Shown: positions 3,723-46,786 of the stretch, piece by piece | Layout of the letters: the number at the start of each line of letters is the position of its first letter | How positions within the stretch are numbered: the first letter of the stretch is position 1 | Assembly: GCA_038747425.1 (NCBI GenBank) | Contig: JBCDJV010000003.1 | Coordinates: 26,857 to 90,856, forward strand | DNA: 64,000 bases | Origin: Bacteroidota bacterium | GTDB taxonomy: Bacteria > Bacteroidota > Rhodothermia > Rhodothermales > JBCDJV01 | Reading direction: 5' to 3' | Translations under genes and position numbers: made by a program | The notes under the pieces: model-generated | Database searches by the model: none | Told to the model about the DNA's origin: nothing | Seen by the model: the letters and a program-made list of their open reading frames with translations, nothing else

Positions 3723-5309
3723 CTACCCCGGTTCCTCGGCCACCGGTCGCCCAGGGATGGACACGGCGGCCACGGCGGCCCCCATCAGGGCCAGCGCCGC
3801 AGACACGCCCATGGCCCACCGGAAGCCGTGGACCAGCGCGCCAGCCGTGGCCGCTCGCACCGCCGCCTGCTCTTCCGGGGGCACGGCGTCCAAGGGGGCA
3901 CCGCCGCCCGGGTCCTGCCGCGCCGAGGCAACGGCTGCCAGGCTGGCCGCTGACAGATCGGCCTGGGCGGCGCGCGCATCGAGCGTGGAGGTGTAAACGC
4001 CAAAGGTCAGCGCACCGAAGAGGGTGATGGCCAACAGCTGCGCCACGCGGCTAGCGGCGTTGTTGATGCCCGAGGCGGTGCCGGCCTGATCGTCGTCCAC
4101 GGCGTTCATCACCACGGTGGTCAGGGGCGCCACGGCCACGGTCATGCCGAGCCCCAGCACCACCATGGGCACAAAGAAGGTGGTCCAGTAGCTGCCCGAC
4201 GTGCCAGGCAGCGCGAAGAGCGCGAGGCCCAGGGCGGACACCGTGGTGCCGGTGATCAGCATACGCCGCGCCCCGATCCGCTCGATGTGGCCGCCCATCC
4301 AGCGGCTCAGGCCGCCCATGAGCAGCGTAAAGGGTAAGAACGCCGCCCCAGCCGCCGTGGCCGAGTACCCATGCACCCCGATGAGCACGTAGGGAAACAG
4401 AAAGGACAGCCCGCCCAGCGCCATGTACAGAAACATAGTGAGCGCGTTGGCGCCCGAGAAGGTGGCCGACCGAAACAGGGTGAGCGGCATCATCGGGGCC
4501 GAGGTCCGGGCCTCGCGCAGGATAAAGCCGCCCAGTAGCCCCACGCCCGCGGAGACGCTCCCCCACACGCGGGGATCGGCCCAGCCCGTCTCGCCCTGTC
4601 GGATCAGCCCAAACACCAACGCCCCAAGCCCAGCGGCGGCCAGCACAGCCCCTGGTAGGTCGAGGTCGCCGTCCGTATGTGCCGCTCGGCTCTCCGGTAG
4701 GCGGAACACGGCCAACGCCAAGGCGACGGCCGCAAACGGCACGAGGGCCACGAACATCCAGCGCCAGCCCGCCACATCCACGAGGTAGCCGCCCAGCAGC
4801 GGCCCCGCAGCACTCGTCAGCGCGGCCGCCCCCGCCCACGTCCCGATGGCCGCCCCCCGCTCCTCCGGCGGGAAGAAAGCCCGTAGCAAGGCCAAGCTAC
4901 CAGGCACCAGCAAGGCGGCCCCCACTCCTTGCACCGCCCGCGCCGCAATGAGCCAGCCCGCACTCGGCGCCCACGCACAGGCCGCCGTGGCCACCCCCAC
5001 GATGCCTAGCCCCCAGGCAAAGACACGCGTCCGTCCGTAGCGATCGCCTAGCGCCCCGCCAATCAGGATGAGCCCAGCCAAGGGGAGCAGGTAGGCGTTC
5101 AGCACCCACTGCATCGTGGCCGCGTTGGTGCCCAAGCTAGACTGCATGGCCGGCAGCGCGACGTTGACCACCGACGATAACGTGAACGCCACACTCGACC
5201 CGAGCACAGAAGCCGCCAGCACCCACCGCTGCGCCGCCGAGTCTGACTGCGCGTCGTGCGCGCCACTCCGGAGAGCATCGGCTTCAGGCGCCCGGCATTC
5301 AGCAGACAT
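3723..5309 (-). CDS. MFS transporter, DHA2 (EmrB/QacA-like, about 14 TM) drug/H+ antiporter family
   Basis: ORF 3723..5444; start chosen at ATG 5309 (MSAECRAP...), because the upstream part of the ORF translates the heptamer repeat element. MFS motif A is GALGDRYGRTRVF, followed by many hydrophobic segments. Confidence 0.8.
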   Translation of the reverse strand: MSAECRAPEADALRSGAHDAQSDSAAQRWVLAASVLGSSVAFTLSSVVNVALPAMQSSLGTNAATMQWVLNAYLLPLAGLILIGGALGDRYGRTRVFAWGLGIVGVATAACAWAPSAGWLIAARAVQGVGAALLVPGSLALLRAFFPPEERGAAIGTWAGAAALTSAAGPLLGGYLVDVAGWRWMFVALVPFAAVALALAVFRLPESRAAHTDGDLDLPGAVLAAAGLGALVFGLIRQGETGWADPRVWGSVSAGVGLLGGFILREARTSAPMMPLTLFRSATFSGANALTMFLYMALGGLSFLFPYVLIGVHGYSATAAGAAFLPFTLLMGGLSRWMGGHIERIGARRMLITGTTVSALGLALFALPGTSGSYWTTFFVPMVVLGLGMTVAVAPLTTVVMNAVDDDQAGTASGINNAASRVAQLLAITLFGALTFGVYTSTLDARAAQADLSAASLAAVASARQDPGGGAPLDAVPPEEQAAVRAATAGALVHGFRWAMGVSAALALMGAAVAAVSIPGRPVAEEPG

Positions 5310-5322
5310 GGCAGGAGGGAGA

Positions 5323-5454
5323 GGAGTGGTGAATGGTGAAGTAGGAGATGGGGCTCCGCTTTTCAGTTTCACGCCCGCAGTGCACATGCCGTCTGGGAGT
5401 GGAGCTCGAAAGCAACGTCTCGCCTCCACTTCACCATTCACCACTCACCATTCA
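5323..5454. repeat. GGTGAAT-heptamer inverted-repeat element, copy A
   Basis: Left arm GTGGTGAATGGTGAAGT (5326..5342) is the perfect reverse complement of ACTTCACCATTCACCAC (5428..5444). The stem extends by GGAG/CTCC and the loop is about 76 nt. The right arm runs into the leuS stop codon (5452..5454). Confidence 0.85.
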
Positions 5455-8052
5455 ATTGACCACTAAGTTCACGATGCGGCCCGGGACGTAGATCTCGCGG
5501 CGCAAGGTCTTGCCTTCGAGGAAGCGCTGCACGTTCTCCTCAGCTTTGGCGAGGGCGAGAATAGCGTCCTTGGAGGCGCTGGCGTCTACGTCGATGTTGG
5601 CGCGCACCTTGCCGTTGACCTGGACCGGGAGCGTGAGCGTATCTTCCTTGAGATAGGCCTCGTTGAGCTCGGGCCATGGGGCGTAGGCCAGCGAGGTCGC
5701 GTGGCCGAGGCGCTGCCACAGCTCTTCCGCCAGGTGCGGCGCGAACGGGCTCAGGAGCAACACGAATGGCTCGATGACGGCCTTGGGGCACGCCGTCCAT
5801 TTCATGGCGGCGTTGACGAACTCCATCATGGCCGAGATGGCTGTGTTGAAACGCAGCCCTTCGATGTCGTCCGTGACCTTTTGGATCGTCAGGTGGAGGG
5901 TGCGGAGTTGGTCTTTGGTGGGCGCGTCGCCCGTGAGCGCAGGCGAGAGGCCGTCGGCTTCGTCGGTGATGAGGCGCCAGGCGCGGTTCAGGAAGCGGAA
6001 GACGCCCTCCACGCCGCGGGTGCTCCACGGCTTGCTCTGCTCCAGGGGGCCGAGAAACATCTCATAGAGCCGCATGGAATCCGCCCCGTACTGCGCGATG
6101 ACCTCGTCTGGGTTGACCACGTTGCCGCGGCTCTTGCTCATCTTGTACGAACGGGCGTCCAGCGTGATGGCCGGATCGGCCTTGAGCACGAAGCCCTCGC
6201 CGCGCTTCTCCACGTCGTCTTCGTCGACGCGGACGCGGGTGAGGTCAGCGTGGCCCTCTGTGTCCGTGGTGCTGATCCAGGCGCCGGTGGCGTCTTGGAA
6301 GCCCGTGTACTCCATCTCGCCCAGGATGAGGCCCTGGTGGATGAGGCGCACAAAGGGCTCGGGCGTGGCCACCACACCCGCATCATAGAGCACCATGTGC
6401 CAGAAACGGGCGTAGAGTAGGTGCAGCACGGCGTGCTCCTGGCCGCCCACGTACAGGTCCACCGGCATCCAGTACCGCTCTTTCTCGGGGTCGACCAGCA
6501 CCTCGTCATTGTGAGGGTCGATGAAGCGCAGGTAGTACCAGCACGACCCCGCCCACTGCGGCATCGTGTTGGTCTCGCGGCGGGCGGGATGGCCCGTCTC
6601 CGGGTCGGTGGTGTGGAGCCAGTCCGTAGCCAGCGCCAGGGGGCCCTCGGGGGAGCCACTGGGCTTGAACTCCTCCAGGTCGGGCAGCGTCAGCGGCAGG
6701 TCGGTGGGCGCCAGCGGCTTGTGGACGCGCTCGCCCTGGTCGTCCACGAACACGATGGGAAACGGCTCGCCCCAGTAGCGCTGGCGGCTGAAAAGCCAGT
6801 CGCGCAGCTTGTAGTTGACCTGGCGCGTCCCGTGCCCCTGAGCTTCGAGCCAGTCGATGATCGCGGCCTTGGCCTCGGCCACGCCCAGGCCGTCGAGGAA
6901 GCCGCTGTTGATGGCGGGCCCTTCGCCGGTGTAGGCCGTCCCCTCGAAGTCGGCGGGCGGCTGGACGGTGCGGACGATCGGCAGATCGTATACCTCGGCA
7001 AATTCCCAGTCGCGCTCGTCCTGCCCCGGCACAGCCATGATGGCCCCGGTGCCGTAGGAGGCCAGCACGTAGTCGGCGATCCAGACGGGGACGTCCGTGC
7101 CGGTGGCGGGGTTGGTGGCGTAGGCCCCGGTCCACACGCCGGTCTTCTCTTTCTGCAGCTCGGTGCGCTCGAGGTCGCTCTTGCGCGCGGCCTCCAGCTG
7201 GTAGGCGCGGACGGCCTCCCGCTGTGCAGGCGTCGTGATGGGGTCCACGAGGGGGTGCTCGGGCGCCAGCACCATGTAGGTGGCCCCGAAGAGCGTATCC
7301 GGGCGGGTGGTGAAGACACGGATCTGGGCGTCGTGGTCCACCATGGGGAAGCTGATCTCAGCGCCTTCGCTCCGCCCGATCCAGTTGCGCTGCATCTCCT
7401 TGGTGCTGGTGGGCCAATCGAGATCGTCCAGCCCGGCCAGGAGGCGCTCGGCGTAGGCGGTGATGCGCAGCATCCACTGGCGAAGTGGCCGGCGCACCAC
7501 CGGGAAGCCGCCGACCTCACTCTTGCCATCCACGATCTCCTCGTTAGCCAGCGTGGTGCCCAGCTCCTCGCACCACCAGACGGGGATCTCGGCCTGGTAG
7601 GCCAGGCCCCGCTCGTAGAGCTTAAGGAAGATCCACTGGGTCCACCGGTAGTAGTCCGGAGCGGTGGTGTTGATCTCGCGCTGCCAGTCGTAGGAGAAGC
7701 CCAGCGCCTTGAGCTGCTCGCGGAAACGGTCGACGTTGTTCTCGGTGGTGACGCGGGGGTGGGTGTTGGTCTTCAGGGCGTACTGCTCGGCCGGCAGGCC
7801 GAACGCGTCCCACCCCATCGGGTGGAGCACGTTGCAACCCAGCATCCGCTTGTAGCGGGCCAGGATGTCGGTAGCGGTGTAGCCCTCCGGATGGCCTACG
7901 TGTAGCCCTGACCCGCTCGGGTAGGGAAACATGTCGAGCACGTAGTACTTGGGCTGATCAGGGGTGGGTTCGTCGGGCGTGCGGAAGGTCTGATGGGCCT
8001 CCCAGTAGGCCTGCCAACGAGCCTCGATGGCCTGAAACGGATACGACGCCAT
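5452..8052 (-). CDS. leuS: Leucine--tRNA ligase
   Basis: 866 aa. Class I HIGH motif ([10 protein letters not shown]) and KMSKS motif (YKMSKSRGN), with bacterial LeuRS architecture throughout. Confidence 0.97.
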
Positions 8053-9947: not shown

Positions 9948-12900
9948 ATGGCTGCGGCCAAGAAATTCGGTGCCTTCAGCGGGGTCTTCACGCCATCGAT
10001 CCTCACGATCCTGGGCGTGATCATGTACCTCCGCCTCCCGACGATCGTGGGGCAAGCGGGGTTGTGGACCACGCTGGGCATTGTACTGCTGGCGCACCTC
10101 ATCTCGCTCACCACAGGCCTGAGCGTCTCGTCCATCGCCACGGACAAGAAGGTGAAGGTGGGGGGCACCTACTACATGCTCTCCCGGAGCCTGGGCTTGC
10201 CCATCGGAGGGACACTCGGGTTGGCGCTGTTTGTGGGCCTCTCGTTCAGCGTGAGCCTCTACTGCATCGGTTTCGCGGAAAGCTTTCTGAGCTACTGGGA
10301 CCTGCCGGTGTCGAAAAACACGATCCGGCTCGCCGGCAGCCTCACGCTGCTCACCGTGACCGTCGTGACGCTCATCAGCACGGCGCTGGCCCTGCGGATG
10401 CAGTTTTTCATCATGGCGGCCATCCTCCTGTCGCTGCTGTCCGTCTTTTTCGGCCAGCACGAGTTCACGCCGTCTGCCCCCGCCTTGGCCCCGCTGCCGG
10501 ACGCGCTGCCCTTCATCGTGCTGTTCGGCATCTTCTTTCCGGCGGTGACGGGCTTTGAGGCCGGCGTTTCGATGTCCGGCGACCTCCAGGACCCCAAGCG
10601 AGATATCCCGCGCGGCACCTTGTGGGCCATCGGCGTAGGGCTCGTGGCGTACATCGGGCTCACGTTTTTCTTCTCCTACACCGTCGATGCCGTGGCTTTG
10701 GCCACCAACCCGCGCATCCTGGTGGAGATGGCGTGGCTGGGTCCGCTGGTGGTGGCGGGCATCTGGGGCGCTACCATCTCATCGGCGCTGGGTAGCATCC
10801 TGGGCGCCCCACGCATCCTGCAGGCCACCGCCCTGGACCGCATCACACCCCGCTTCTTCGGCGTGGGCTACGGCAAGGGGAATGAGCCGCGCCATGCCCT
10901 CATCCTCACCTTCCTGATTGCCGAGGCCGGCATCTTGATCGGGGAGCTGGACGTGATCGCGCGCATCGTGTCCATGTTCTTCATCACCACCTACGGCTTC
11001 CTGAACCTGAGCTGCGCCATCGAGAGCTGGGCCAGCCCAGACTTCCGGCCAGACTTCAAGATCCCGCGCTGGGTCAGCATCCTGGGGTCCGGGGCGTGCT
11101 TTGTGGTGATGATCCTGCTGGACCTGGTGGCCATGATCGGGGCGTCGGTGCTCCTGGCGGGCGTCTACGTCTACCTCAAGCGCAAAGAGCTGACCCTGGA
11201 GTCGGGCGACACGTGGGAGGGCGTCTGGTCGTCGCTCATCCGCGCCGGGCTTGCTCGCCTGGAGCAGAGCCGCAGCCACGAGCGCAACTGGCGTCCCAAC
11301 ATCCTGCTCTTCAGCGGGGGCACGCAGGCCCGGCCTCACCTCCTGGAGTTCGGGCAGCGCCTCGTCAAGAAACGCGGCCTGCTCTCCAACTTCGACCTGG
11401 AGGAACGACCCGACGCCCGGCGCTTGCTGTCACGCCTGGAGCCAACCCCTGAGCTGGCAGAAGAGCCGGACGGCGGCGTCTTCACCCGCCACGTGGAGGT
11501 GCGCGATGTGTATGACGCCATCGGCACCATCGCCACGTACTACGGGTTCGCGGGCGTGGAGCCCAACACGGTGATGATGGGGTGGGCCCGCAATACGGCC
11601 GAGCCGCAGCGCTTCGCCTATCTGCTCCAGACGCTCATCGACCAGGATCTCAACCTGCTCCTGCTCGACTACAAGAAGGAGCGCGGCTTCGGGGCGCGCG
11701 CCCGCATCGACGTCTGGTGGCGCGGGGGCGACAACAACATCACGCTGGCCCTGGCTCTGTTGCGATTCCTGACCACGTCCGATGAATGGCGCGAGGCCAC
11801 GATCCGGTTCCTCATCATCAACGACGGAGACACGGCGCTCAGCAGCACCCTCCAGAACCGGATGGAGTCTATCCTAGACGAATACCGGGTGGAGGGCGTG
11901 GTCCGCATCCTCAACAACGCCGTGGAGCAGCGTCCCGTGCGCGAGCTGATCGGCTTGGAATCCGCCGAGGCCGACCTGACGCTGCTCGGCGTGCCCTACC
12001 TCATCCCCGAGCACGGCCAGTCGTACGTGGAGTCGGTCAGCCGCCTAGCCGATGTCCTGGGGTCGGTCCTCTTGATCCGCGCGGCCTCGTCCTTCAACCG
12101 CCTGAGCCTGGGCTTTGAACACGTCACCCCCGTGGCCCTCCCCAGCGCTGACGACCTGGCGGACGACCTGCCCCCGGTGACGCTCCCTGACGACGAGACG
12201 CTCCAGTGGGCCTTGACGCGTTTCCAGGACAGCTTCGAGACGGTGGCCACCACCTTCGCCGACGGGCCGCTTCAGCAGGGCTTTGCCGCCTACGTGACCC
12301 TGGCCGATGAGATGCAGGACGCGGTGACGCGCACCTTCGATAGCGCAGAGCGGGCCTTGGGCGAGGAACAGCGCCTGCGCGCACGCAAGGGCCTCCAGCG
12401 CACTCGCAGCAGCTTCCTCTTCCAGGCGCAACAGCTCTGCGAGACCTTCCACGACGAGCGCCTCCCGGCCCATCGGGACCTCGTGCGCGACGGACTCAGC
12501 CAGCTTCGCACCAGCCTTCGCGACGTGCAGCGGCAGACGCCGGAAGAGGTGGCCGTGCCCCTGGATGATGCCACCCAGGCGGCCCTGCGCTCCGCCCCGC
12601 TGCTGACTCGCCTCCGCGTCGCCTTTGGTCGCCTAGCCGCTCGGCTCCAGGGCGAGCCCCCCACCTACGACGTTCCGCTGCGCGATGTGGTCACCACCAC
12701 CCTCCAAGGCCCCTATCAGCGTGAACTAGCCGAGACCCTGCACCGCTTCGGCTTTGCGAGCCATGAGGCCATCGGGGCCGTCCAACAGCTTATTGGCACC
12801 GTGGACGACAGCTTGGCTCGGCTAGACCAGGCGCTTCGTGACCCCGACCCGCTGGACGACGATCCCGTGCGACCGTTGTTGGTCCGGGAACGTCGGCGCG

Positions 12901-15068
12901 CCGAGGAGACCCTGGCTGAGATCCGGACCACCATCAACGACCATGGCAGCGCCACCAGCCGGCAGCTCGTCGCCATCACCCGTACGGCGCTCCAGGCCGT
13001 GATCCAGGCCAGCACCCCGCCGGTCACGCCCCTCCCGCGGGCCGACGCCGAGCCAGCGCGCCCCGCCACCGAGCTGATCGATGCCTGGTCCGAGAACCAG
13101 GCCCTCCTGCTGAACCGGGCCTACCTGGACCTGCGCCTCTTGGCGTTCAAGCAGCGCATGGCCACGATCGTCCATCGCTCTGAAACCGAGCTGGTGGTAC
13201 AGCTTCAAGCCCTCACCGAGCGCTTTGCCGAGTTGGACGAGCACCTGTTGGCCGTGGCCACCTCGGAGCCACAGGCCCCGCCCGCTCGTCTGGCCGCCTT
13301 CGATGCGGGCCTCCGCGTGGACGGCCCCCGCGTGGTCGAGCAGCTCAGCACCGACCTGCACGAGGCCATGGCCAATCTACCCGAGACGGTCCGCACGCTC
13401 TCCGAAGAGGCCGTGCAGCGCCTCGGCGAAACCCCGTTCGAAGAGCTGTCGGCCGTTACCGTATCTCTCCAGCGCGTGGTGGAATACCTCGTCGACATGG
13501 AGTTTCTGACTCCGCTGCGTGCCGAGGTGGCGGAATGGCCAGGGCAGACGGGCCGCGCCCGCGCCGTGGCCCAGGAGGTGTTCCGGCTGGCCACCTTCCA
13601 GCTCTACGACACCCAGGGCGACGGGACCGGTCCTCCGCTCGACGACCCTGCCACCGAGGCCTCGCTGGTGGCCCACGGCCGCGCCCGCTTAGCCGATGAG
13701 CAGGGACGCCTGAACCAGCTCTTGGCCGACCTGCAGCCCTTCGTGCGGGCACGCCTGCGCGTCACGTTCAACCAGTTCAGTGCGTACGCGGTGACCCGCA
13801 CCGAGGGGCCCATGCAGCAGTACGTGCGCGGGCATACCGGCCGCGTGGTCCGCTCCCAGGCGCGCGACGCCCTCGCTCGCGCCGGGAAGGCGATGTCAGA
13901 CCAGGTGGTGCAGCTCCTGTATCGGCGCAGCGAGGGCGTGCTCTATGCCCGACAGCTGCAGGACGCCCTCGACGTCCAGACCGCCGCCGAGGTGGGCCTC
14001 CAGGTGCGCGAGGCCATGGCCCCTCGTCCTGAGGTGCTCAAGGCCCTCCCTTTCTACTACCGGCAGCTGTTCCTGGGCACGCCGCCTCTCACCGACGACC
14101 TGTGTGTGGGCTGGGAGGATGAGCTGGGCGAAGTACGCCGGGCGCTCACGCAGCATCGCCGGGGCTTTCGCGGCGGCCTCCTGATTGTGGGGGAACGCCT
14201 GGCTGGCAAGACCTCGCTGGCCCAAGCCATCGCCCGTACGCATTTCAAGCCGCATGCCGTCTTCACGGTACAGCCGCCCCCTGGAGGCTCCACCAGCCCC
14301 GACGTGCTCCTGCAACGCCTCCAACACGCCACGGGCCTGGCCGAGCCCCCCGAGACCCTCTTCGATCACCTCCCCGCGTCGAGCGTGGTGATCGTGGATC
14401 GCCTGGAGCAGTGGTGGGCACGAACCGCCGACGGACACGCTGCCCTGAAGGTGTTGCTCGAATGGATTGACCGCTATGGAGACCGTTGCCTGTTCCTCTT
14501 CACGGCCAACCTGCACGCGTACCGCCTGATGGATCGCCTCTACGACCTGCAGGGGCACTTCCTGTCCGTGGTGGCCTGTGCACCGGCACATGCCGAACAG
14601 CTCAAAGAGATCGTCCTCCAGCGCCACCAGACCACCGGCCTGGCATTCACCCTGGACGGCACGCCCGAGGCCTCCCTGTCCGCCTGGAAGCGGGCCCAGC
14701 TCTTCACCGCTTTCTTCGACTACGCGCGTGGCAACGTGGGCGTGGCCTTGCACGCGTGGATCGCCCACATTGAACGGGCCACCCGCACCGAGCTGACCCT
14801 GCGCTGGCCCACCCCCCCCGACGCCGACGTCCTGCGCCGGCTCCCCCCCTTGCAGCAAGCCCTGCTCGTGCACTTTGTGCTCCACGGCCCCCTCACGCGC
14901 CCCCGCCTCGGCGAGACCACCACCCTGGATCCCAACGCCCTGGACGACGCCCTCCGCGACCTCATTCGTGCAGGCATCGTGGATAAGTCAGACCGGGAGC
15001 TGTACAGTATCAACGTCTTCCTCCAGCCCCACGTGACGCATCTGTTCACCCAGAAAGGATGGCTTTGA
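9948..15068 (+). CDS. Fusion protein: cation-chloride cotransporter (SLC12/CCC, APC superfamily) plus SLC12 C-terminal domain, a helical region of about 650 aa, and a P-loop NTPase (AAA_16/Arch_ATPase-like) with a winged-helix-like tail
   Basis: One uninterrupted ORF (TTG 9915, first ATG 9948). The N-terminus aligns residue by residue with CCC hallmarks: KFGAFSGVFTPSILTILGVIMYLRLP, GGTYYMLSRSLG, FFPAVTGFEAGVSMSGDL. NWRPNILLF opens the cytosolic SLC12 C-domain. Walker A GERLAGKT is at 14190..14213 and Walker B-like VVIVDRLE at 14385..14408. Lead-in is CVGWEDELGEVRRAL. Confidence 0.8.
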   Translation: MAAAKKFGAFSGVFTPSILTILGVIMYLRLPTIVGQAGLWTTLGIVLLAHLISLTTGLSVSSIATDKKVKVGGTYYMLSRSLGLPIGGTLGLALFVGLSFSVSLYCIGFAESFLSYWDLPVSKNTIRLAGSLTLLTVTVVTLISTALALRMQFFIMAAILLSLLSVFFGQHEFTPSAPALAPLPDALPFIVLFGIFFPAVTGFEAGVSMSGDLQDPKRDIPRGTLWAIGVGLVAYIGLTFFFSYTVDAVALATNPRILVEMAWLGPLVVAGIWGATISSALGSILGAPRILQATALDRITPRFFGVGYGKGNEPRHALILTFLIAEAGILIGELDVIARIVSMFFITTYGFLNLSCAIESWASPDFRPDFKIPRWVSILGSGACFVVMILLDLVAMIGASVLLAGVYVYLKRKELTLESGDTWEGVWSSLIRAGLARLEQSRSHERNWRPNILLFSGGTQARPHLLEFGQRLVKKRGLLSNFDLEERPDARRLLSRLEPTPELAEEPDGGVFTRHVEVRDVYDAIGTIATYYGFAGVEPNTVMMGWARNTAEPQRFAYLLQTLIDQDLNLLLLDYKKERGFGARARIDVWWRGGDNNITLALALLRFLTTSDEWREATIRFLIINDGDTALSSTLQNRMESILDEYRVEGVVRILNNAVEQRPVRELIGLESAEADLTLLGVPYLIPEHGQSYVESVSRLADVLGSVLLIRAASSFNRLSLGFEHVTPVALPSADDLADDLPPVTLPDDETLQWALTRFQDSFETVATTFADGPLQQGFAAYVTLADEMQDAVTRTFDSAERALGEEQRLRARKGLQRTRSSFLFQAQQLCETFHDERLPAHRDLVRDGLSQLRTSLRDVQRQTPEEVAVPLDDATQAALRSAPLLTRLRVAFGRLAARLQGEPPTYDVPLRDVVTTTLQGPYQRELAETLHRFGFASHEAIGAVQQLIGTVDDSLARLDQALRDPDPLDDDPVRPLLVRERRRAEETLAEIRTTINDHGSATSRQLVAITRTALQAVIQASTPPVTPLPRADAEPARPATELIDAWSENQALLLNRAYLDLRLLAFKQRMATIVHRSETELVVQLQALTERFAELDEHLLAVATSEPQAPPARLAAFDAGLRVDGPRVVEQLSTDLHEAMANLPETVRTLSEEAVQRLGETPFEELSAVTVSLQRVVEYLVDMEFLTPLRAEVAEWPGQTGRARAVAQEVFRLATFQLYDTQGDGTGPPLDDPATEASLVAHGRARLADEQGRLNQLLADLQPFVRARLRVTFNQFSAYAVTRTEGPMQQYVRGHTGRVVRSQARDALARAGKAMSDQVVQLLYRRSEGVLYARQLQDALDVQTAAEVGLQVREAMAPRPEVLKALPFYYRQLFLGTPPLTDDLCVGWEDELGEVRRALTQHRRGFRGGLLIVGERLAGKTSLAQAIARTHFKPHAVFTVQPPPGGSTSPDVLLQRLQHATGLAEPPETLFDHLPASSVVIVDRLEQWWARTADGHAALKVLLEWIDRYGDRCLFLFTANLHAYRLMDRLYDLQGHFLSVVACAPAHAEQLKEIVLQRHQTTGLAFTLDGTPEASLSAWKRAQLFTAFFDYARGNVGVALHAWIAHIERATRTELTLRWPTPPDADVLRRLPPLQQALLVHFVLHGPLTRPRLGETTTLDPNALDDALRDLIRAGIVDKSDRELYSINVFLQPHVTHLFTQKGWL

Positions 15069-38689: not shown

Positions 38690-38711
38690 GTGGGTGGTGG
38701 GTGGTGGGTGG
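38690..38711. repeat. Tandem heptamer (GTGGGTG)x3, possibly a degenerate relative of the GGTGAAT elements
   Basis: Read directly. Sits 16 nt upstream of the MscS ATG, so it would be C-rich in that mRNA leader. No inverted partner found nearby. Confidence 0.6.
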
Positions 38712-39569: not shown

Positions 39570-40769
39570 TTACTCGACCGGTCCCAGATCCTTGGGCAGG
39601 CGGTTGCACAGGGGCTTGATGGACCAGAAGCCGCGGACAGAGAGATCCTGCGGGTTGAGCACCTCGCCGGTCGGAGAAAAGCGGAGGACCCCCGTGCTGC
39701 TGCCGAGCCATGAGGTCTCGTCGCCATGCGCGATGCCGATGAACTCGGCGGCGGTGTTGTCCACCGCGCGCAGGTACTGCACTTTCATCTCCCGATCCAG
39801 CACAAGGAGCTGCTCGCGGGGCTCCTCGCCCTCGCGGAGATAGTCGGAGGTGTCAATCACACGAGGCTCTGGGCGCCGCTCGGTGCCTAGCGCCAGGTTG
39901 GTGGACTGCCGCATCACCGATCCACCAAACACCGTGTAGCCTTCCCGGGTGGTGCGGTCCACCGCCACCGCGGCCAAGAAGTGGTTCAACGAGCCCTGAT
40001 AGACCCGTCGGCGGTTTCGCTCCCAGCCGGCGGTCTCTTTCTCGTTGGCGGGGGTCAGGGGCTCAAAGTAGGGCACGCTCTCGTGCTGGAGGCTGTAACC
40101 TCGGTTGCCTTCGGTGAGACTGAACGACTCCAGGACGACCTCAACCTCGTACCCCAGGTACCGGTTTTCGAGGCGAAGGGGCTGAAGAGCGGTGGCGGTG
40201 ATCACCTCGCGGTTGCTCTGCTGCTCACGGCTGAAGGTGAGCGCCTCCGGGTTGATCAGCCGACATTCGTCCACGCGGTCGGTGCCCAGGTAGAGACGAC
40301 GGAACAGCTCCAGCTCTTCGGACGATCCACCGGACTGCGCCTCCAGGCGCTGCAGCTCGGCCTGGAGCGTCTTGATCTGATCGCGCACCCTCTCGAGCCG
40401 CTCAGCTACGTTGGCCTCATCCAAAGCAGGCGTTTCCTCGGTGGCTCGCGGCAGGTAGACCTCCACCTGCGCGCCGTCGGCCTCGACCACGATGTCCTCG
40501 ACGTACGGCCCCGACCCCGGCATCACGATAGCCAGCTGGTGCTGCCCCATCGGGACCTCGGCAAACGAGAACGTGCCTGTGCTATCGCTGGGGGCCTGCA
40601 GGCTGGTACCGCCCACCCGCACCTCGGCGGCCGAGACGGGATCGCCGGTGCCTAGTTCGATCAGGGTGCCTGTGAGAGGCGCCCGTGGGGCCGGCTGATC
40701 GGTGATGAGACGACTACCGCCACACCCCGCCAGGAGCAGTGACGCGCAAAGAAGAGAAGCCAGACGCAT
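39570..40769 (-). CDS. Lipoprotein with carboxypeptidase-regulatory-like (CarboxypepD_reg) domain and coiled-coil segment
   Basis: ATG 40769 (MRLASLLCASLLLAGCGG, lipobox). LTGTLIELGTGDPVSAAEVRVGG...TGTFSFAEVPMGQHQLAI. Confidence 0.6.
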   Translation of the reverse strand: MRLASLLCASLLLAGCGGSRLITDQPAPRAPLTGTLIELGTGDPVSAAEVRVGGTSLQAPSDSTGTFSFAEVPMGQHQLAIVMPGSGPYVEDIVVEADGAQVEVYLPRATEETPALDEANVAERLERVRDQIKTLQAELQRLEAQSGGSSEELELFRRLYLGTDRVDECRLINPEALTFSREQQSNREVITATALQPLRLENRYLGYEVEVVLESFSLTEGNRGYSLQHESVPYFEPLTPANEKETAGWERNRRRVYQGSLNHFLAAVAVDRTTREGYTVFGGSVMRQSTNLALGTERRPEPRVIDTSDYLREGEEPREQLLVLDREMKVQYLRAVDNTAAEFIGIAHGDETSWLGSSTGVLRFSPTGEVLNPQDLSVRGFWSIKPLCNRLPKDLGPVE

Positions 40770-40960
40770 GGGAAACCGGTGTGAAGCAATGAGCAAGGGG
40801 GGGAGCAAGAGTGTCGTATGCATGACACACGGAATACGGCGAATACCTCGCCTGTTTTCATTCAAAAGCACAGGGTTACGACATTGGTACGTATGGGATG
40901 CGCTGTCCTGGGGGATCGGCCGTCCTGGGACCGCGGCGCCTCCCTGGGCGTCAGTGGACG

Positions 40961-41044
40961 TTGAGAATGGTGAGTGGTGAACGGGTGCCGGTCCGGCGCA
41001 AACGCTCGGGCGTGGCGAGATACCTTCACCATTCACCATTCAAA
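40961..41044. repeat. GGTGAAT-heptamer inverted-repeat element, copy B
   Basis: TTGAGAATGGTGAGTGGTGAACGG (40961..40984) versus CCTTCACCATTCACCATTCAAA (41023..41044). The core GAATGGTGA(G/A)TGGTGAA is complementary at 17 of 18 positions. Lies about 55 nt 3' of the TolC-like gene stop. Confidence 0.8.
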
Positions 41045-41098: not shown

Positions 41099-42424
41099 CT
41101 ACCGTCCCACCTGGTTGCTCAGCCGGAGCAGCTCCGTCTCGGCTTGCTTGGCCGCGAACTGGACGCCCAGCAGGCGGCTCTCGGCCAGGGTGAGCGATTC
41201 CTGCACCTCGCGCAGCTCTACGGACGTGATCGTGCCCAGGCGGAAGCGCTCCAGGGCCACGTCTACGTTGAGGCGGGTGTTCTCCAGGTTCTCCCGCTCT
41301 AGGTCCACCAGCTCCAGGCTCGTGGCGTACTGCCGGTAGAGCGTGGCGGTGGCCGTGCGCACGTCGCGCGCGGCCTCCTCTTGGGCGCGCTCCGCCTGCT
41401 CGGTGGCCAGGGCGGCGTTGCTCAGGCGGCGGCGGCGGTTGAGGCCGTCGAACAGCGTGTAGCGCGCCGTGAGGCCGTACGATAACGAGAAGCTGCGGCT
41501 CGTGGCTAGAAAGCCGGACTCGCTGTCCAGGAACGAGTAGTCGTAGCCGGTGCTCAGGTCCACGGTGGGCAGGCGCTCGGCGCGGATCTCGTCCGCCTCT
41601 AACTCAGTCACGCGCACCTCGGCGCGGGCCTGGCGGAGCGTCGGGTTGTCGGCCTCGGCGCGCTGCCGGAGGGCGTCCGCCTGGAGGCTGGGGTCCACTA
41701 GGATGGTATCCTGCACCGCGTAGGCCTGATCCACCGGACGGCCCAGCAGCAGGTTGAACGTGGTCTTGGCGTTAGCCAACGCCGTCTCTTGCTGCAAGAG
41801 CGCCACCCGGTCCGTGTTGAGGTCCACCCGCGCCTGCCGCACCTCCAGTTCGGAGGCGGATCCCAGGTCGCGCCGCAGTTCGGCGATGCGGAGGCGCTCC
41901 TCGGAGATGGTCACGGCGTCCTCGAACACTTGCACCTGCGCCTGCTGCCGGATCAGGTCCGCGTAGCCGATGATGACGTCGGCGGCGATGAGGTTGGTCT
42001 GCGCCTCGGTGAGGGCTTCCTCTTGGTCGAGCAGCGTCTCCAGCCGGGCGTAGGTGGCACGCCGCGCGAAGCCATCGAACACCGTCCACGCCGCTGTGAT
42101 GCCCGCGTTGCGCCGCGCGTTGACGGCCCCGGTCACCTCGATGGGATCTCGCCCCTGGAACGTCTGCCGGGTGTTGGTCAGGTCCCCCCCGTAGCCGCCA
42201 TCCAGCGACACCGTGGGCAGGTACCCCGCGTTGCCACGCGTCACGTTGTTCTCCGCCACCGCCAGCCGGTTCAGCGCCGTCTGCACATCGAAGTTACCCG
42301 CTAGCGCCTGCGCAAGGGCCTCGTCCAGCGTGAGGACCGGCTGCGCCTGGGCCCCCGAGGCGAGGGCCGTTAGCATGCCCAGCACCAGCCCCCAGCGCCG
42401 TACGTCGTACCACCGTTGTCTCAT
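41099..42424 (-). CDS. TolC-family outer membrane efflux protein
   Basis: ATG 42424 (MRQRWYDVRRWGLVLGMLTALASGAQA), overlapping the pump stop as ATGA. Two OEP repeats. The 575-aa track ORF is an N-terminal over-extension. Confidence 0.85.
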   Translation of the reverse strand: MRQRWYDVRRWGLVLGMLTALASGAQAQPVLTLDEALAQALAGNFDVQTALNRLAVAENNVTRGNAGYLPTVSLDGGYGGDLTNTRQTFQGRDPIEVTGAVNARRNAGITAAWTVFDGFARRATYARLETLLDQEEALTEAQTNLIAADVIIGYADLIRQQAQVQVFEDAVTISEERLRIAELRRDLGSASELEVRQARVDLNTDRVALLQQETALANAKTTFNLLLGRPVDQAYAVQDTILVDPSLQADALRQRAEADNPTLRQARAEVRVTELEADEIRAERLPTVDLSTGYDYSFLDSESGFLATSRSFSLSYGLTARYTLFDGLNRRRRLSNAALATEQAERAQEEAARDVRTATATLYRQYATSLELVDLERENLENTRLNVDVALERFRLGTITSVELREVQESLTLAESRLLGVQFAAKQAETELLRLSNQVGR

Positions 42425-45400
42425 CCGGCCTCGACCGTCTGGAGGAGCGTTGCTTCGTCCACGGCTACCTTCGCGGGCTCCTTGCGGGTGAGGTAGAGGT
42501 AGGTGGCGGGCACCACGTAGAGCGTCAGGACCGTGCCGATCAGGAGGCCGCCGATGATGGCCACGCCCATCGGCACGCGGCTTTCGGCGCCCGCGCCCAG
42601 GGCCAGGGCGATGGGCAGGATGCCGAGCGACGTGGAGCAGGCCGTCATCAGGATCGGGCGGAAGCGGGCCGCCGCGCTGTCCCGGATGGCTTCGGCGATG
42701 TCTAGGCCCGCGGCCTTGCGCTGGTTGGCAAACTCGACGATCAGGATGCCGTTCTTGGTGATGATCCCGATCAGCATGATCATGCCGATCTGGCTGAAGA
42801 TGTTGATCGAGTGGTTGAAGTACCACAGGGCGAACAGGGCCCCGCTGAGGGCCAGCGGCACCGTGAACATGATCGTGAGCGGGTCGCGAAAGCTCTCAAA
42901 CTGGGCCGCCAGGATCAGGAACACCAGCACCAGTGCGAAGAGGAAGACGAACGCCAGGTTGCTGGCGCTCTCCGCAAACTCGCGCGAGGGGCCCGCCAGC
43001 GTGGTCGTGAACGACTCGTCCAGCACCTCCTCTGCAATGCCGTCCATCACCGCCAGACCGTCGCCGATGGTGAAGCCGGGCGCGAGGCTGGCCGAGAAGG
43101 TGGCACTCACGTAGCGATCCGTGCGGTAGAGCTGCGGCGGGCTGCTCTCCTCGGTGACCGTCACCAAGTTGTCCAGCTGGATGGACTCCCCGGCGGCGTT
43201 GCGCACGTAGAGCGAGCGGAGGTCCAGCGTCTCGTTGCGGTCCTGCCGCTCCACCTGGCCCACCACCTGATACTGCTTGCCGTCCATCACAAAAAACCCG
43301 ATCCGCTGCGCGCTGAGCGCCAGCTGGAGGGTTTGCGCGATGTCCAGGGCCGCCACCCCAGCGGCACGCGCCCGGTCGCGGTCGATGGTGATGCGCAGTT
43401 CGGGCTTGGTGAACTTGAGGTTGACGTCCGTGAAGACAAACTCCGGGGCCTGCCGGGCGGCGTCCAGGAAGGGCGGGATGACCTCCTTGAGGCGATCCAG
43501 GTTGGGCGCCTGCACCACGTACTGCACGGGGGCCCCGCCGCGGCGGTTGCCAATCGACTGGGGCTCGCTGACGAAGGCGCGGGCGTTGGTCAGGGACTGG
43601 ATGTCTCGCCCCACCTGCGCCGCGATCTCGCTCTGCGTGCGCTCGCGCTCATCTGGGTCGTTCAGGACGAGGAACCCAAAGGCCGAATTCACGGACCCCG
43701 CCGCCGAGAACCCGGGCGAGGTGACGGTGATGATGGCATCCGCCTCGGGGGCCGTCTGCTCCGCAATGTCGATGAAGGCATCCACGTACTGGTCCATGAA
43801 CTCGAACGTGGCGCCCTCGGGGGCCGTGGCGAACATGCGGACGCGACTGCGGTCCTCGGTGGGCGTCAGCTCCTGCGGCAGGATGTTGAGGAAAAGGTAG
43901 ATCAGCCCAAAGCAGGCCAGGACAACCGGGAACGCCAGCCAGCGCCGCTTCAGGAAGCCCTCCAGCGAGCCTCGGTACGCCTCCGTCAGACGCTCGAAAA
44001 ACGGCTCGGTGGCGCGGTAGAACCACGGCTGCTGCGCGCGCTTCTTGAGGAGCCGCGTGGACAGCATGGGCGTGAGCGTGAGGGCTACGAACGACGAGAT
44101 GACCACCGCCGCGGCCAGCGTCACGCCAAACTCGCGGAAGAGGCGCCCCGTGAGGCCGCCCAGGAACAGGATCGGCAGGAAGACGGCCACCAAGGACAGG
44201 GTGGTGGCCACCACGGCGAAGAAGATCTCCTTGGCGCCCACGATCCCCGCCTGCACCGGGTCCATGCCCTGCTCAATCTTGGCGTAGATATTCTCCAGCA
44301 CCACGATGGCATCGTCCACCACCAGCCCGATGGCCAGCACGATGCCCAGCAGCGTCAGCACGTTGATCGAGAACCCAGCCAGGTACATCACAAAGAACGC
44401 CCCGATGAGCGACACCGGGATCACGATCACCGGGATGACCGTCGTCCGCCAGTCGCGCAGGAAGAGGAAGATGATGAGGATGACCAGCAGGAAGGCGATG
44501 AAGATGGTCTGCTGCACCTCGCTGACGCTCTCCCGGATGAAGTCCGTGACGTCGAACCCCACGCCCAGCTCAATGTCCGGGGGCAGGTCCGCGCGGATCT
44601 GGTCGACGCGGCGGTAGAACTCGTCCGTGATGGCGATGTAGTTGGCGCCAGGCTGCGGCTGGAGCACCACGCCCACCATGGGGATGCCACCGCGCTTGAG
44701 GATCGTGCGCTCGTTGAGCGGCCCCAGCTCGGCCCGCCCGATGTCTCGCAGGCGCACCACGCGGCCGCCATCTTCCTTGACGATCAGGTTGTTGAACTCC
44801 TCGGGCGTCTCCAAACGGCTGAGCGTCCGGACGGTCAGCTCCACGTCCCGCCCCTCGATGCGGCCCGAGGGCAGCTCCACATTCTCCCGCGCGAGAGCGG
44901 TGCGCACGTCGAGCGGCGAGAGGCGGTAGGCGGCCAGGCGCGCCGGGTCAATCCAGATGCGCATGGCGTACTCTTTGTCGCCCCAGATCTGGACGGAGCT
45001 GACGCCGGGGATGGTCTGCACCCGCTCTTTGAACACCTCGTCCGCCAGGCGCGAGAGTTCCAGCAGGTTGCGTTCGTCGCTCTTGATGTTGAGGAAGACG
45101 ATAGGCTGCGCGTCGGCGTCGGCCTTGGACACCGTGGGGGGGTCGGCGTCGGGCGGCAGGCTGCGGACGGCCCGGCTGACGCGGTCCCGCACGTCGTTGG
45201 CGGCGGCCTCCAGGTCGGTGTCGAGGTCGAACTCGACGGTGATCGTGGAGCGCCCTTCGCGGCTCACGGAGGTCAGCGTCCGGATCCCGGCCACGCCGTT
45301 GATCGACTCCTCCAGCGGCTCGGTGAGCTGGTTTTCGATGACCTCGGCGTTCGCCCCCGGGTAGTTGGTGCTGACCGTGATGACGGGCGGGTCCACGGCC

Positions 45401-45513
45401 GGGTACTCCCGCACCCCCAGAAACGTGAACGCGATCACGCCAAAGAGCACGATCACGATCGTCATCACCCAGGCCAACACCGGCCGCCGAATCGAAAGCG
45501 AGGAGAGAGACAT
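42421..45513 (-). CDS. RND efflux transporter permease (AcrB/HAE1-like)
   Basis: 1030 aa. MSLSSLSIRRPVLAWVMTIVIVLFG..., 12-TM/two-loop RND architecture, and conserved TM4 VVDDAIVVLENI. Confidence 0.93.
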   Translation of the reverse strand: MSLSSLSIRRPVLAWVMTIVIVLFGVIAFTFLGVREYPAVDPPVITVSTNYPGANAEVIENQLTEPLEESINGVAGIRTLTSVSREGRSTITVEFDLDTDLEAAANDVRDRVSRAVRSLPPDADPPTVSKADADAQPIVFLNIKSDERNLLELSRLADEVFKERVQTIPGVSSVQIWGDKEYAMRIWIDPARLAAYRLSPLDVRTALARENVELPSGRIEGRDVELTVRTLSRLETPEEFNNLIVKEDGGRVVRLRDIGRAELGPLNERTILKRGGIPMVGVVLQPQPGANYIAITDEFYRRVDQIRADLPPDIELGVGFDVTDFIRESVSEVQQTIFIAFLLVILIIFLFLRDWRTTVIPVIVIPVSLIGAFFVMYLAGFSINVLTLLGIVLAIGLVVDDAIVVLENIYAKIEQGMDPVQAGIVGAKEIFFAVVATTLSLVAVFLPILFLGGLTGRLFREFGVTLAAAVVISSFVALTLTPMLSTRLLKKRAQQPWFYRATEPFFERLTEAYRGSLEGFLKRRWLAFPVVLACFGLIYLFLNILPQELTPTEDRSRVRMFATAPEGATFEFMDQYVDAFIDIAEQTAPEADAIITVTSPGFSAAGSVNSAFGFLVLNDPDERERTQSEIAAQVGRDIQSLTNARAFVSEPQSIGNRRGGAPVQYVVQAPNLDRLKEVIPPFLDAARQAPEFVFTDVNLKFTKPELRITIDRDRARAAGVAALDIAQTLQLALSAQRIGFFVMDGKQYQVVGQVERQDRNETLDLRSLYVRNAAGESIQLDNLVTVTEESSPPQLYRTDRYVSATFSASLAPGFTIGDGLAVMDGIAEEVLDESFTTTLAGPSREFAESASNLAFVFLFALVLVFLILAAQFESFRDPLTIMFTVPLALSGALFALWYFNHSINIFSQIGMIMLIGIITKNGILIVEFANQRKAAGLDIAEAIRDSAAARFRPILMTACSTSLGILPIALALGAGAESRVPMGVAIIGGLLIGTVLTLYVVPATYLYLTRKEPAKVAVDEATLLQTVEAG

Positions 45514-45700
45514 TTAAATGGTGAATGGTGAGTTGAGAATGATGAATGGTGAATGAGGAGTGGGCTTGAGGTTGGTGGAGCCTGTTGGGGCTACTTGAAC
45601 GTGGATACCTCGTCCATGCGGGGAGGATGGCGCGTCGGGGTCGTTGGGCAGCCGTTCACCATTCATACTTCACCACTCACCATTCACCGTTCACCATTTA
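45514..45700. repeat. GGTGAAT-heptamer inverted-repeat element, copy C (largest; intra-operon)
   Basis: Left arm from 45514: TTAAAT GGTGAAT GGTGAGT TGAGAAT GATGAAT GGTGAAT GAGGAGT. Reverse complement of the right arm (45652..45700): TTAAAT GGTGAAC GGTGAAT GGTGAGT GGTGAAG TATGAAT GGTGAAC. Fills the gap between the adaptor stop (TAA 45698..45700) and the pump ATG (45513..45511). Confidence 0.88.
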
Positions 45701-46786
45701 ATCTCCTGTCAACGTGGCGGGGAGCCCTACGGTGACGGGGAGGCCGGGGCGGAGTTGTTGGATGCCGGAGGTCAGCACGGTGTCTTGAGGGGCCAGGCCA
45801 GACACGATCTGAACACGGTCTGCCAAGCGGATGCCGGTCTCGACCTGCCGGGGCATGGCTTGGCCGTTCTGGTAGACGTACAGCTTCTGGCCGCCCAGCT
45901 CGGGGATGACGGCGATGGTGGGCACGGTCAGGGCGTCTTCGATGGTCTCGAAGACCAGCTCGACATCCGCGAAGAGGCCCGGGCGCAGGACGCCGCCGGG
46001 GTTGGCCGCACGGGCCCGCAGGCGGACCGTGCGGGTATTGGGGTCCACGGTGGGCTCGTAGGCGAAGACGCGGCCGGTGTACGGATCCGTCTGGCCGACC
46101 ACACGAAACACGATCTCATCGCCCACCTGGACGCGGTTGGCATAACGCTCGGGGATAGAAAACTCGACCTTGATGGAGCCCAGGTCCTGGAGCGTGGCGA
46201 TGCGGGTGGTGGGCGAGATGTAGGCGCCGTCGCTGACGTAGCGAAGCCCCACCACGCCGTCGAACGGCGCCCGCACCTCGGTGCGGCGGATCTCGGCGTC
46301 GATCAGCTCCAGCTCAGCGCGGAGCACGTTGAGTTCGTTGAGGGTCTCGTCGTATTCCTGCTGGCTGATGCCGCCTTTGTCGAGCAGGGCCTGCTGGCGA
46401 GTCTCGCGGCTCTCGGCCAGCCGCAGGCGGTACTCAGCTTGGCGGTAGCGCGCCTGGAGCTGCTCGTCGTTGATCTTGACGAGCAGAGCGCCGGCCCGAA
46501 CGGCGCGGCCCTCTTCAAAGAGGATCTGCGTGACTTTGCCCGAGGTCTCGGCGGTGAGGTCGACCTGCTCATTGGCGAGCAGCGTGCCGGTCGCTAGGAT
46601 GCGATCATCGAGTGCTTCTTCGGTGATGATCTGGGCATTGACGCGCAGGCGGGTGTCGCTGGGCCGGGCGGCTGGCGCGGCCTCGGCCGTGTCGGCGCGG
46701 AGGTCGGGCAGCTTGGGCCAGGCCAGTCCTACGATCACCACGACGGCCACGAGGCCCCAGAGTACACGTTTCAGGATCGGGCTCAT
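45698..46786 (-). CDS. RND efflux periplasmic adaptor (membrane fusion protein)
   Basis: ATG 46786 (MSPILKRVLWGLVAVVVIVGL); the ORF extends to a GTG at 46813. Has lipoyl, coiled-coil and beta-barrel segments typical of the HlyD_D23 family. Confidence 0.88.
   Translation of the reverse strand: MSPILKRVLWGLVAVVVIVGLAWPKLPDLRADTAEAAPAARPSDTRLRVNAQIITEEALDDRILATGTLLANEQVDLTAETSGKVTQILFEEGRAVRAGALLVKINDEQLQARYRQAEYRLRLAESRETRQQALLDKGGISQQEYDETLNELNVLRAELELIDAEIRRTEVRAPFDGVVGLRYVSDGAYISPTTRIATLQDLGSIKVEFSIPERYANRVQVGDEIVFRVVGQTDPYTGRVFAYEPTVDPNTRTVRLRARAANPGGVLRPGLFADVELVFETIEDALTVPTIAVIPELGGQKLYVYQNGQAMPRQVETGIRLADRVQIVSGLAPQDTVLTSGIQQLRPGLPVTVGLPATLTGD

Follow-up and report, generated by a model that had tools for sequence, protein, structure and literature searches.

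What fills the gap between the adaptor gene and the pump gene of a resistance-nodulation-division (RND) efflux operon, and what might it do there? The question is raised by a stretch of 64,000 nucleotides from a Bacteroidota contig (hereafter the window), in which the 184 nt between the adaptor stop codon (TAA, 45698-45700) and the pump start codon (ATG, 45513-45511), read in the sense of the minus strand, are occupied by a single element that we term el.3. We lean towards the view that el.3 is a member of a multi-copy intergenic family of foldback repeats, with heptamer microsatellites as arms, inverted around a non-conserved spacer, and with an action at most similar to that of repetitive extragenic palindromic (REP) sequences. 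At the level of the operon the result is deflationary, since the hairpin would be a recent passenger and not a conserved subunit-ratio device; it may still skew adaptor/pump expression in this strain.

On the sense strand, el.3 opens with a G-rich 5' arm (45654..45701, minus strand), which is made of TTAAAT and six heptamers, namely GGTGAAC, GGTGAAT, GGTGAGT, GGTGAAG, TATGAAT and GGTGAAC (45695-45654), with the dinucleotide AT placed between the TAA and the first unit. The C-rich 3' arm (45514..45561, minus strand) likewise carries six heptamers, ACTCCTC, ATTCACC, ATTCATC, ATTCTCA, ACTCACC and ATTCACC (45561-45520), followed by ATTTAA (45519-45514), which joins this arm directly to the pump ATG. 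Tandem Repeats Finder (TRF) detected an array of period 7 in each arm, with 5.6 copies and 75% matches at 45517-45555 and with 6.3 copies and 72% matches at 45655-45698. An inverted-repeat search returned 42-nt arms (45514-45555 and 45660-45701) which are 79% complementary, together with further registers offset by multiples of 7 nt. The two ends form a terminal inverted repeat (TTAAAT/ATTTAA) that includes the adaptor stop codon on one side and abuts the pump ATG on the other, and the adaptor TAA takes the TGA position of a degenerate 'zeroth' unit within TTAAAT. An initial annotation, made from the letters alone, had described the 184-nt gap, two inverted arms of about six GGTGAAT-like heptamers each and a terminal inverted repeat that takes in the stop codon and the nucleotides next to the start. 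Sequence reading confirms the gap and the terminal repeat, and the arms are confirmed by sequence reading, TRF and the inverted-repeat search. The annotation had also placed a central segment of about 90 nt between the arms; the separation of the arms stands, but the length has to be corrected to 92 nt (45562..45653, minus strand), or up to 104 nt if the degenerate units are divided differently.

This spacer is unique sequence. Its composition on the sense strand is 45% C and 19% G, it has no structure of its own when folded alone (z score = -0.62), and by BLAST against the collected sequences it matches only itself and its copy in an independent assembly (GCA_039197235.1; L001). The composition resembles that of a Rho utilisation site and the spacer contains an 8-codon mini open reading frame (ORF), ATGGACGAGGTATCCACGTTCAAGTAG; both may be chance.

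Folding, which the initial annotation had proposed as a check, predicts a stable structure for the RNA of el.3, with -71.8 kcal/mol compared to -48.7 +/- 4.4 kcal/mol in shuffled sequences (z = -5.2; none of 200 shuffles was as stable). In the predicted structure the UAA lies inside the closing stem, and the G of the pump AUG together with the next five bases pairs with an AGGAGA that shortly precedes the adaptor stop. By this prediction the stem base would occlude the pump start codon. Known RNA features were also searched for. Covariance models of Rfam 15 matched nothing in the window at gathering score, a tRNA scan of the window found nothing, and a terminator scan based on a U-tract consensus found none at el.3; the flanks of 349 arms of the wider class described below are not T-rich. 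A promoter scan of the spacer found none with a sigma-70 consensus, Bacteroidota-type promoters being outside the coverage of that scan. Sub-threshold Rfam matches of related elements to a plant miRNA hairpin were dismissed as meaningless.

The element has company in the window. A scan of the 64 kb for heptamer arrays of 21 nt found three sites only, compared to 0-1 windows in 20 shuffles, and a 12-mer search of the window gave 18 matches compared to 4.2 +/- 2.1 expected. Inverted-repeat and pattern searches defined two further copies. The copy el.1 (5324..5456) has perfect arms of 19 nt around a spacer of 85 nt and a fold of -63.2 kcal/mol (z = -4.77). It occupies most of the gap between the stop codon of leuS (TGA, 5452-5454; Pfam LeuRS) and the ATG of an MFS transporter gene (5307-5309; Pfam MFS_1), and the leuS TGA sits inside its degenerate first unit, ATTGAAT. 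The copy el.2 (40962..41044), with arms of 17 nt, a spacer of 43 nt and a fold of -42.6 kcal/mol (z = -3.35), is located 54-57 nt downstream of the stop of the outer-membrane factor (OMF) gene, its G-rich arm beginning 54 nt after that stop. In el.1 and el.3 the G-rich arm is offset from the upstream stop by 2 nt, and the stop falls exactly at the TGA position of the degenerate first unit. All three copies lie between co-directional genes. Their arms are direct heptamer arrays of 2-6 units, without self-complementarity and with lengths that differ between the copies, and their spacers (85, 43 and 92 nt) show no similarity to each other or to other genomic DNA in BLAST searches of the collected sequences. 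The pattern search of the 64-kb window thus bears out the multi-copy expectation of the initial annotation, and with three copies and strong folds the element is neither unique nor without stable structure, the two outcomes which that annotation had named as speaking against its proposal.

We then compared the operon with those of related bacteria. The three genes, all on the minus strand, encode the membrane-fusion (adaptor) protein (45698..46786; Pfam HlyD_D23 and HlyD_3), the RND pump (42421..45513; Pfam ACR_tran/MMPL) and the OMF (41099..42424; Pfam OEP), the first two being taken from the ORF list. The OMF gene overlaps the pump stop by 4 nt, and the gene calls of the L001 contig place the OMF gene at 10812-12137 and the pump end at 10815; the adaptor gene called there has 362 aa with RND-MFP domains. 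The nearest named relatives of the pump are those of Rhodothermus marinus (73-74% identity), followed by pumps of Rhodothermales and Balneolales. The adaptor-pump gap is 14 nt in R. marinus DSM 4252 (CP001807; pump identity 74%), 13 nt in L234 (73%), 36 nt in L232 (77%) and 122 nt in L231 (CP030158; 82%), and GGTGAAT arrays were found in none of these four gaps. In the comparison of relatives that the initial annotation had called for, el.3 is therefore present here and absent in four orthologous operons, and because these four gaps lack it, el.3 is a gain in the lineage of the window and does not belong to what is conserved in the operon. Its spacer shows marginal similarity to the 122-nt gap of L231 (p = 0.024), which is not collinear.

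The sister Rhodothermales genome L231 (CP030158.1) carries other heptamers in the same RND operon. CTTCGAT is repeated 4.3 times at 13181-13210, inside the 121-nt pump-OMF gap, and further arrays (TGCTGGC/CGGCTGA and GCTGACG-type) at 14524-14608 straddle the OMF stop. Gene-end positions in the RND operon are reused with lineage-specific heptamer units.

Inverted pairs of GGTGAAT or GGTGAGT arrays form a class that is found across bacteria. A single-arm pattern retrieved 110 stretches from IMG/VR, where a scrambled unit of matched composition gave 10 and the Xanthomonas unit 55, and a two-arm pattern retrieved at least 119 stretches from a collection of species-representative genomes, the calculated chance expectation being about 0.5. 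Inverted GGTGAAT arrays of this layout were seen in no fewer than 14 phylum-level groups, with genome GC contents of 36-73%. Among the matches listed are Gemmataceae and other Planctomycetota; Mesorhizobium, Phyllobacterium and Devosia of the Alphaproteobacteria, including complete isolate genomes; Pyrinomonadaceae and Chloracidobacterium of the Acidobacteriota; Chitinophagaceae, Saprospiraceae, Mucilaginibacter and Rikenellaceae; and Gemmatimonadota, Verrucomicrobiae, Chloroflexi, Nitrospinae, Nitrospirota, Cloacimonadota, Armatimonadota, Cyanobacteriota and several Gammaproteobacteria. A lone archaeal match (Thermoplasmata, L117) has two units per arm only and was not relied on. Arms elsewhere in the class range from 2 to more than 30 units, and the class spacers are not generally structured (median z = -0.66). 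The loci of the class, a set biased by its collection, contain 937 arrays of period 7 compared to 171 of period 6 and 186 of period 8, and more than half of the period-7 arrays have units other than those selected. On one metagenome contig (Ga0182033_10105740; L238, 864-1132), 13 tRNA genes lie within 2 kb on one strand with GGTGAGT foldbacks between them. Foldbacks are tolerated inside untranslated co-transcribed RNA operons too.

The regularities of the class were drawn from about 180 pairs. Among 107 classifiable pairs, 63 are located between co-directional, 34 between convergent and 10 between divergent genes. Measured from the upstream stop, the median start of the G-rich arm is at about +4 nt, and 50 of 62 arms start between -19 and +17 nt; the median distance from the end of the C-rich arm to the following in-frame start is 23 nt. 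Stop triplets concentrate 4-6 nt ahead of the first full unit, i.e. in the degenerate first unit. Solo arrays that are G-rich on the sense strand adjoin a stop, and those that are C-rich on the sense strand adjoin a start. Two species of Mesorhizobium carry an orthologous element at the same locus (L121, 2226-2331, and L213, 2236-2348), with spacers that are 89% identical, arms of 2 versus 5 and of 6 versus 4 units, and in both species an upstream stop that is the TGA of the first unit. Elements are thereby shown to persist at a locus across speciation, and their arms to change by gain or loss of whole units, as replication slippage would predict. The centres of the arrays are their most homogeneous part.

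The class also follows a rule of polarity, by which the G/purine-rich arm is 5' and the C-rich arm 3', on either strand. In the single-arm set, which is unbiased in this respect, all 44 pairs are convergent and none is divergent. TRF-defined GGTGART pairs are G-first by 146:1, and pairs with unrelated units, which stand outside the pattern selection, by 49:2. The same pattern gave 6 matches in IMG/VR compared to 0 when its halves were swapped, and a C-first pattern found 13 stretches only in 241 million metagenome records, mostly tandem neighbouring elements or other palindromes. A rare genuine C-first pair (L249, 2520-2635; OGWH01000722.1) consists of (CCACTCA)n(CCACTTT)n and the inverse arrays around a spacer of about 50 nt, inside a longer palindrome, and may prove an instructive exception. 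For ordinary perfect inverted repeats of these loci the ratio is 141:113, and the polarity is therefore specific to array hairpins; on the same ground, the idea that all hairpins in these genomes are G-first was rejected. Three other explanations of the polarity were tried. An advantage of stop codons in all frames was rejected, the first arm having a stop in 25 of 49 cases among unrelated units compared to 26.9 expected from composition. Selection for wobble or RNA pairing was rejected as the cause, mismatches of the arms on the sense strand being G.U at 32 and A.C at 27 positions (13 versus 14 elements). Telomere-like polar growth is unsupported, as the arrays have no gradient of decay from outer to inner units. 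Candidates for the cause of the polarity are avoidance of Rho, a weak hybrid of pyrimidine RNA and purine DNA that follows the stem, slippage linked to R-loops at the places where ribosomes come off the mRNA, a need to keep the region before starts free of AUG, GUG and Shine-Dalgarno-like strings, and an oriented binding protein.

How could such an element be accommodated between the adaptor and the pump? The operon of the three genes is an obligatory one, with pump and OMF overlapping by 4 nt, and therefore el.3 must be read through and would be transcribed. The mRNA would then contain a stem-loop of about 190 nt, with the adaptor UAA held on one strand of the stem base and the pump AUG abutting the other. 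In such a fold only a few nucleotides would again separate the stop from the start, as in the ancestral gap of 14 nt, and a ribosome terminating on the adaptor would melt the stem base and free the pump initiation region. The translational coupling of the ancestral gap would thereby be preserved, and it is plausible that the insertion was tolerated for this reason. As a possible additional effect, similar to that of REP sequences and bacterial interspersed mosaic elements (BIMEs), the hairpin might shield the upstream adaptor segment from 3' exonucleases or cause partial loss of the downstream transcript, and either effect would favour the adaptor over the pump. Any such bias is considered incidental to a generic genome-wide element, and not the work of an evolved operon-specific regulator, because the relatives are without the element.

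Several points weigh against this reading. We infer the RNA hairpin, the coupling and the stabilizing effect alike from sequence and predicted folding. Slippage cannot create a unique spacer of 92 nt. For the third of the class that lies between convergent genes (34/107), translational coupling has no bearing. The arm mismatches give no sign of selection specifically on RNA pairing, because G.U is not in excess over A.C, and a role at the DNA level or no role is equally compatible with this result. The source genome is represented by three copies, all from the 64-kb window. Finally, a G-first order almost without exception (146:1 and 49:2) and a single unit that recurs from phylum to phylum suggest, when taken together, that some specific mechanism or factor is at work beyond what the foldback reading provides.

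The last point leads to a broader alternative, in which the foldbacks are a pan-bacterial, polar 'gene-boundary' class that arises from a specific conserved mechanism and not from generic polymerase slippage. We regard this as unlikely. The mechanism could be a heptad-reading protein, or a generation of repeats linked to transcription or termination where ribosomes leave the mRNA. If true, it would account for the presence of one unit in at least 14 groups, for the 5' position of the purine-rich arm in about 98-99% of pairs, whatever the unit, and for arrays that begin only a few nucleotides from stops, and it would give a reason for the predominance of heptamers among the long microsatellites of prokaryotes. 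The regularities themselves (shared unit, polarity, stop-abutting arrays and unit-wise change of the arms) turn an unexplained abundance of heptamers into testable rules.

A doubtful alternative is that el.3 is a non-autonomous mobile element, i.e. a miniature inverted-repeat transposable element (MITE) or bacterial foldback transposon with heptamer arrays as terminal inverted repeats, which inserts beside stops at TTAA/TAA-like sites. Its presence here and absence from the orthologous junctions, the multiple copies and the arms resembling terminal inverted repeats would all fit, the polarity is such as fixed transposon ends would give, and some spacers are AT-rich in GC-rich genomes. In favour of mobility there is one low-GC family on IMG/VR contigs (about 39% GC), in which GTGTGAATGGTGAATGGTGAATGATG arms surround an AT-rich core of 78 nt that is 72-89% identical between sites (L005, 1116-1235; L006, 198-322 and 3832-3950; L027, 3174 and 8489; L055, 836; L092, 4530). 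Its flanks differ and two copies lie on one contig, which is a MITE-like dispersal, unlike that of the window copies. The three copies in the window have unrelated cores, and their flanks share no direct repeat (with slashes at the borders, GAT/TAAAT...ATTTA/AATG for el.3, and CAAT/TGAAT...ACTCC/TCTC and GCGG/TTTGAAT...ATTCTCA/ACGT for the others), so that the target-site duplications sought at the suggestion of the initial annotation were found in none of them. Arm length is highly variable, and no transposase was found linked to the element. At corresponding gene ends of this operon the sister genome has heptamers of other kinds, and unrelated units share the polarity; both points are hard to square with one transposase and one end sequence. 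In addition, the copy in the close strain L001 differs from el.3 by one substitution and one inserted G (TTTA-G-AATG), and the inserted G disrupts the proposed TTTAAA target beside the pump ATG. The proposal of a small mobile element that targets TTAA/TAA sites thus finds no support here.

A dedicated cis-regulator of the RND operon, acting as an attenuator, partial terminator or RNA-stability element which yields more adaptor than pump, is in our view very unlikely. It would suit the exactly intercistronic position and the very stable hairpin, which is predicted to sequester the pump start codon. Tripartite RND pumps assemble as 6 adaptor : 3 pump : 3 OMF, and a 2:1 bias would suit this stoichiometry; there is also a precedent in malE-malF, where a REP sequence stabilizes the upstream mRNA. 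Nevertheless, four relatives with pumps 73-82% identical do without a comparable element, and the two of their gaps that were folded, of 122 and 36 nt, have no unusual structure (z = +1.45 and +0.36). The same type of element is found in unrelated contexts (between leuS and the MFS gene, after the OMF gene and between tRNA genes), the element showed neither a U-tract nor a site resembling a terminator, and the sense strand has no G.U-tolerant covariation. The role in setting adaptor:pump stoichiometry, suggested in the initial annotation, is therefore not supported, the array-free gaps of the relatives (13, 14, 36 and 122 nt) and the unrelated contexts both speaking against it.

It is just as improbable that the function lies at the level of DNA, with the arms serving as oriented sites for a heptad-reading protein (compare the heptads of the omega repressor and centromere-like arrays) or as a cruciform or quadruplex that marks gene boundaries. 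An identical unit across 36-73% GC and many phyla, an orientation rule as strict as that of oriented protein sites and the strand symmetry of the transition mismatches would agree with such a function, and the related GGGAATC repeats form G-quadruplexes in vitro (PMC4692102). However, GGTGAAT has runs of GG only and hence a weak quadruplex potential, there is no candidate protein, many unrelated units behave identically, the number of units varies freely, and the tight relation to stop and start codons points to constraints at the transcript level. An assembly artefact is excluded because the second independent assembly (GCA_039197235.1) carries the same element, and the class is also present in complete isolate genomes.

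The analogies drawn in the initial annotation, to the short tandemly repeated repetitive (STRR) heptamers of cyanobacteria and to REP/BIME sequences, are apt, and a still closer precedent is found in the convergent GGGAATC pairs of Xanthomonas, for which the polarity relative to genes has already been noted (PMC4692102). Rehm 2015 described these heptamers as intergenic, located between aligned ORFs and mostly transcribed; a function was not found (PMC4692102). Each Xanthomonas genome has 70-75 convergent inverted array pairs, and within 50 bp past a stop it is the sense strand that is G-rich (PMC4692102). Like the present class, the GGGAATC repeats of Xanthomonas and the GGGGA(C/T)T repeats of Nostoc are tandem 7-nt intergenic units, mostly between aligned and rarely between divergent ORFs, whose G-rich strand is the sense strand right after stops or the antisense strand right before starts (PMC4692102). 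The convergent pairs of Xanthomonas can likewise form stem-loops, and the number of units varies between relatives with the type of repeat preserved; in Nostoc, inverted pairs are few (Rehm 2015, PMC4692102). In contrast to these repeats, GGTGAAT and GGTGAGT lack runs of three or more G, and therefore neither the rationale of G-quadruplexes nor a preference for four units applies. The GGTGAAT unit is found in many phyla and not in one genus, the host here being Rhodothermales-like, and el.3 has a long spacer (92 nt), lies inside an obligatory operon and touches both a stop and a start codon.

The STRR repeats of cyanobacteria (CCCCAGT, TTGGTCA and CAACAGT) and the TAACTGA repeats of Beggiatoaceae, Cyanobacteria and Bacteroidetes (MacGregor 2015, PMC4679880) are also heptameric intergenic microsatellites of patchy phylogeny, located near start or stop codons and without an established function (PMC4679880). 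Unlike the foldbacks, they have other units and are overwhelmingly direct arrays, mostly upstream of starts; MacGregor 2015 reported one indirect set among 170 (PMC4679880). According to Mrazek 2007, as cited in both of these papers (PMC4692102, PMC4679880), heptamers are the most abundant long simple sequence repeats in most prokaryotic genomes, and polymerase slippage was the hypothesis put forward for them. Our literature searches for GGTGAAT or GGTGAGT arrays, as heptamers, dimers and rotations, found no relevant paper. Three points were not found described elsewhere, namely that the polarity holds for units in general, that ordinary hairpins do not show it and that one unit recurs in different phyla.

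REP, BIME and REPIN sequences of Enterobacteria and Pseudomonas resemble the class in being multi-copy, hairpin-forming intergenic repeats at the 3' ends of genes and inside operons, and a REPIN in having two inverted copies around a spacer. However, a REP unit spans 20-40 nt, is imperfectly palindromic, carries a conserved GTAG at its 5' end and is mobilized by a REP-associated tyrosine transposase (RAYT), in contrast to the non-palindromic tandem arrays of el.3 and its class, in which the number of units is free and to which no RAYT was linked in the 64 kb of this genome that were covered. MITEs such as Correia and Nezha have inverted ends around a short non-coding core and are present or absent between lineages, and the Foldback transposons of eukaryotes consist of inverted repeats of short tandem repeats, variable in number, with heterogeneous middles, a resemblance that is architectural only. 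Unlike both, the window copies have no target-site duplication, no shared core and no transposase that could be found. Intrinsic (Rho-independent) terminators are likewise stable stem-loops just downstream of stops and enriched between convergent genes, but el.3 is without a U-tract, has a stem of 40-50 nt and a loop of 92 nt, and lies inside an operon whose downstream genes need expression.

A few minor observations concern the effect of the arrays on gene calls and assemblies. C-rich arms are open in all three frames, and over-extended ORF translations begin MVNGE... In the window, a mechanical ORF at 3723-5444 (minus strand, 573 aa) starts inside a C-rich arm, the real MFS start being the ATG at 5309, and another at 39570-41039 (minus strand, 489 aa) starts inside a C-rich arm as well, the real start of the lipoprotein-like gene being near 40823. 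Heptamer arrays can therefore produce over-extended gene calls. A short period-7 array, (GTGGGTG) x3.1, lies at 38690-38711 of the window, with no inverted partner noted. The L001 contig ends (12137-12144) 7 nt past the OMF stop, about 50 nt short of the position that el.2 takes in the window, and many other arrays are located at contig ends; heptamer repeats appear to break short-read assemblies.

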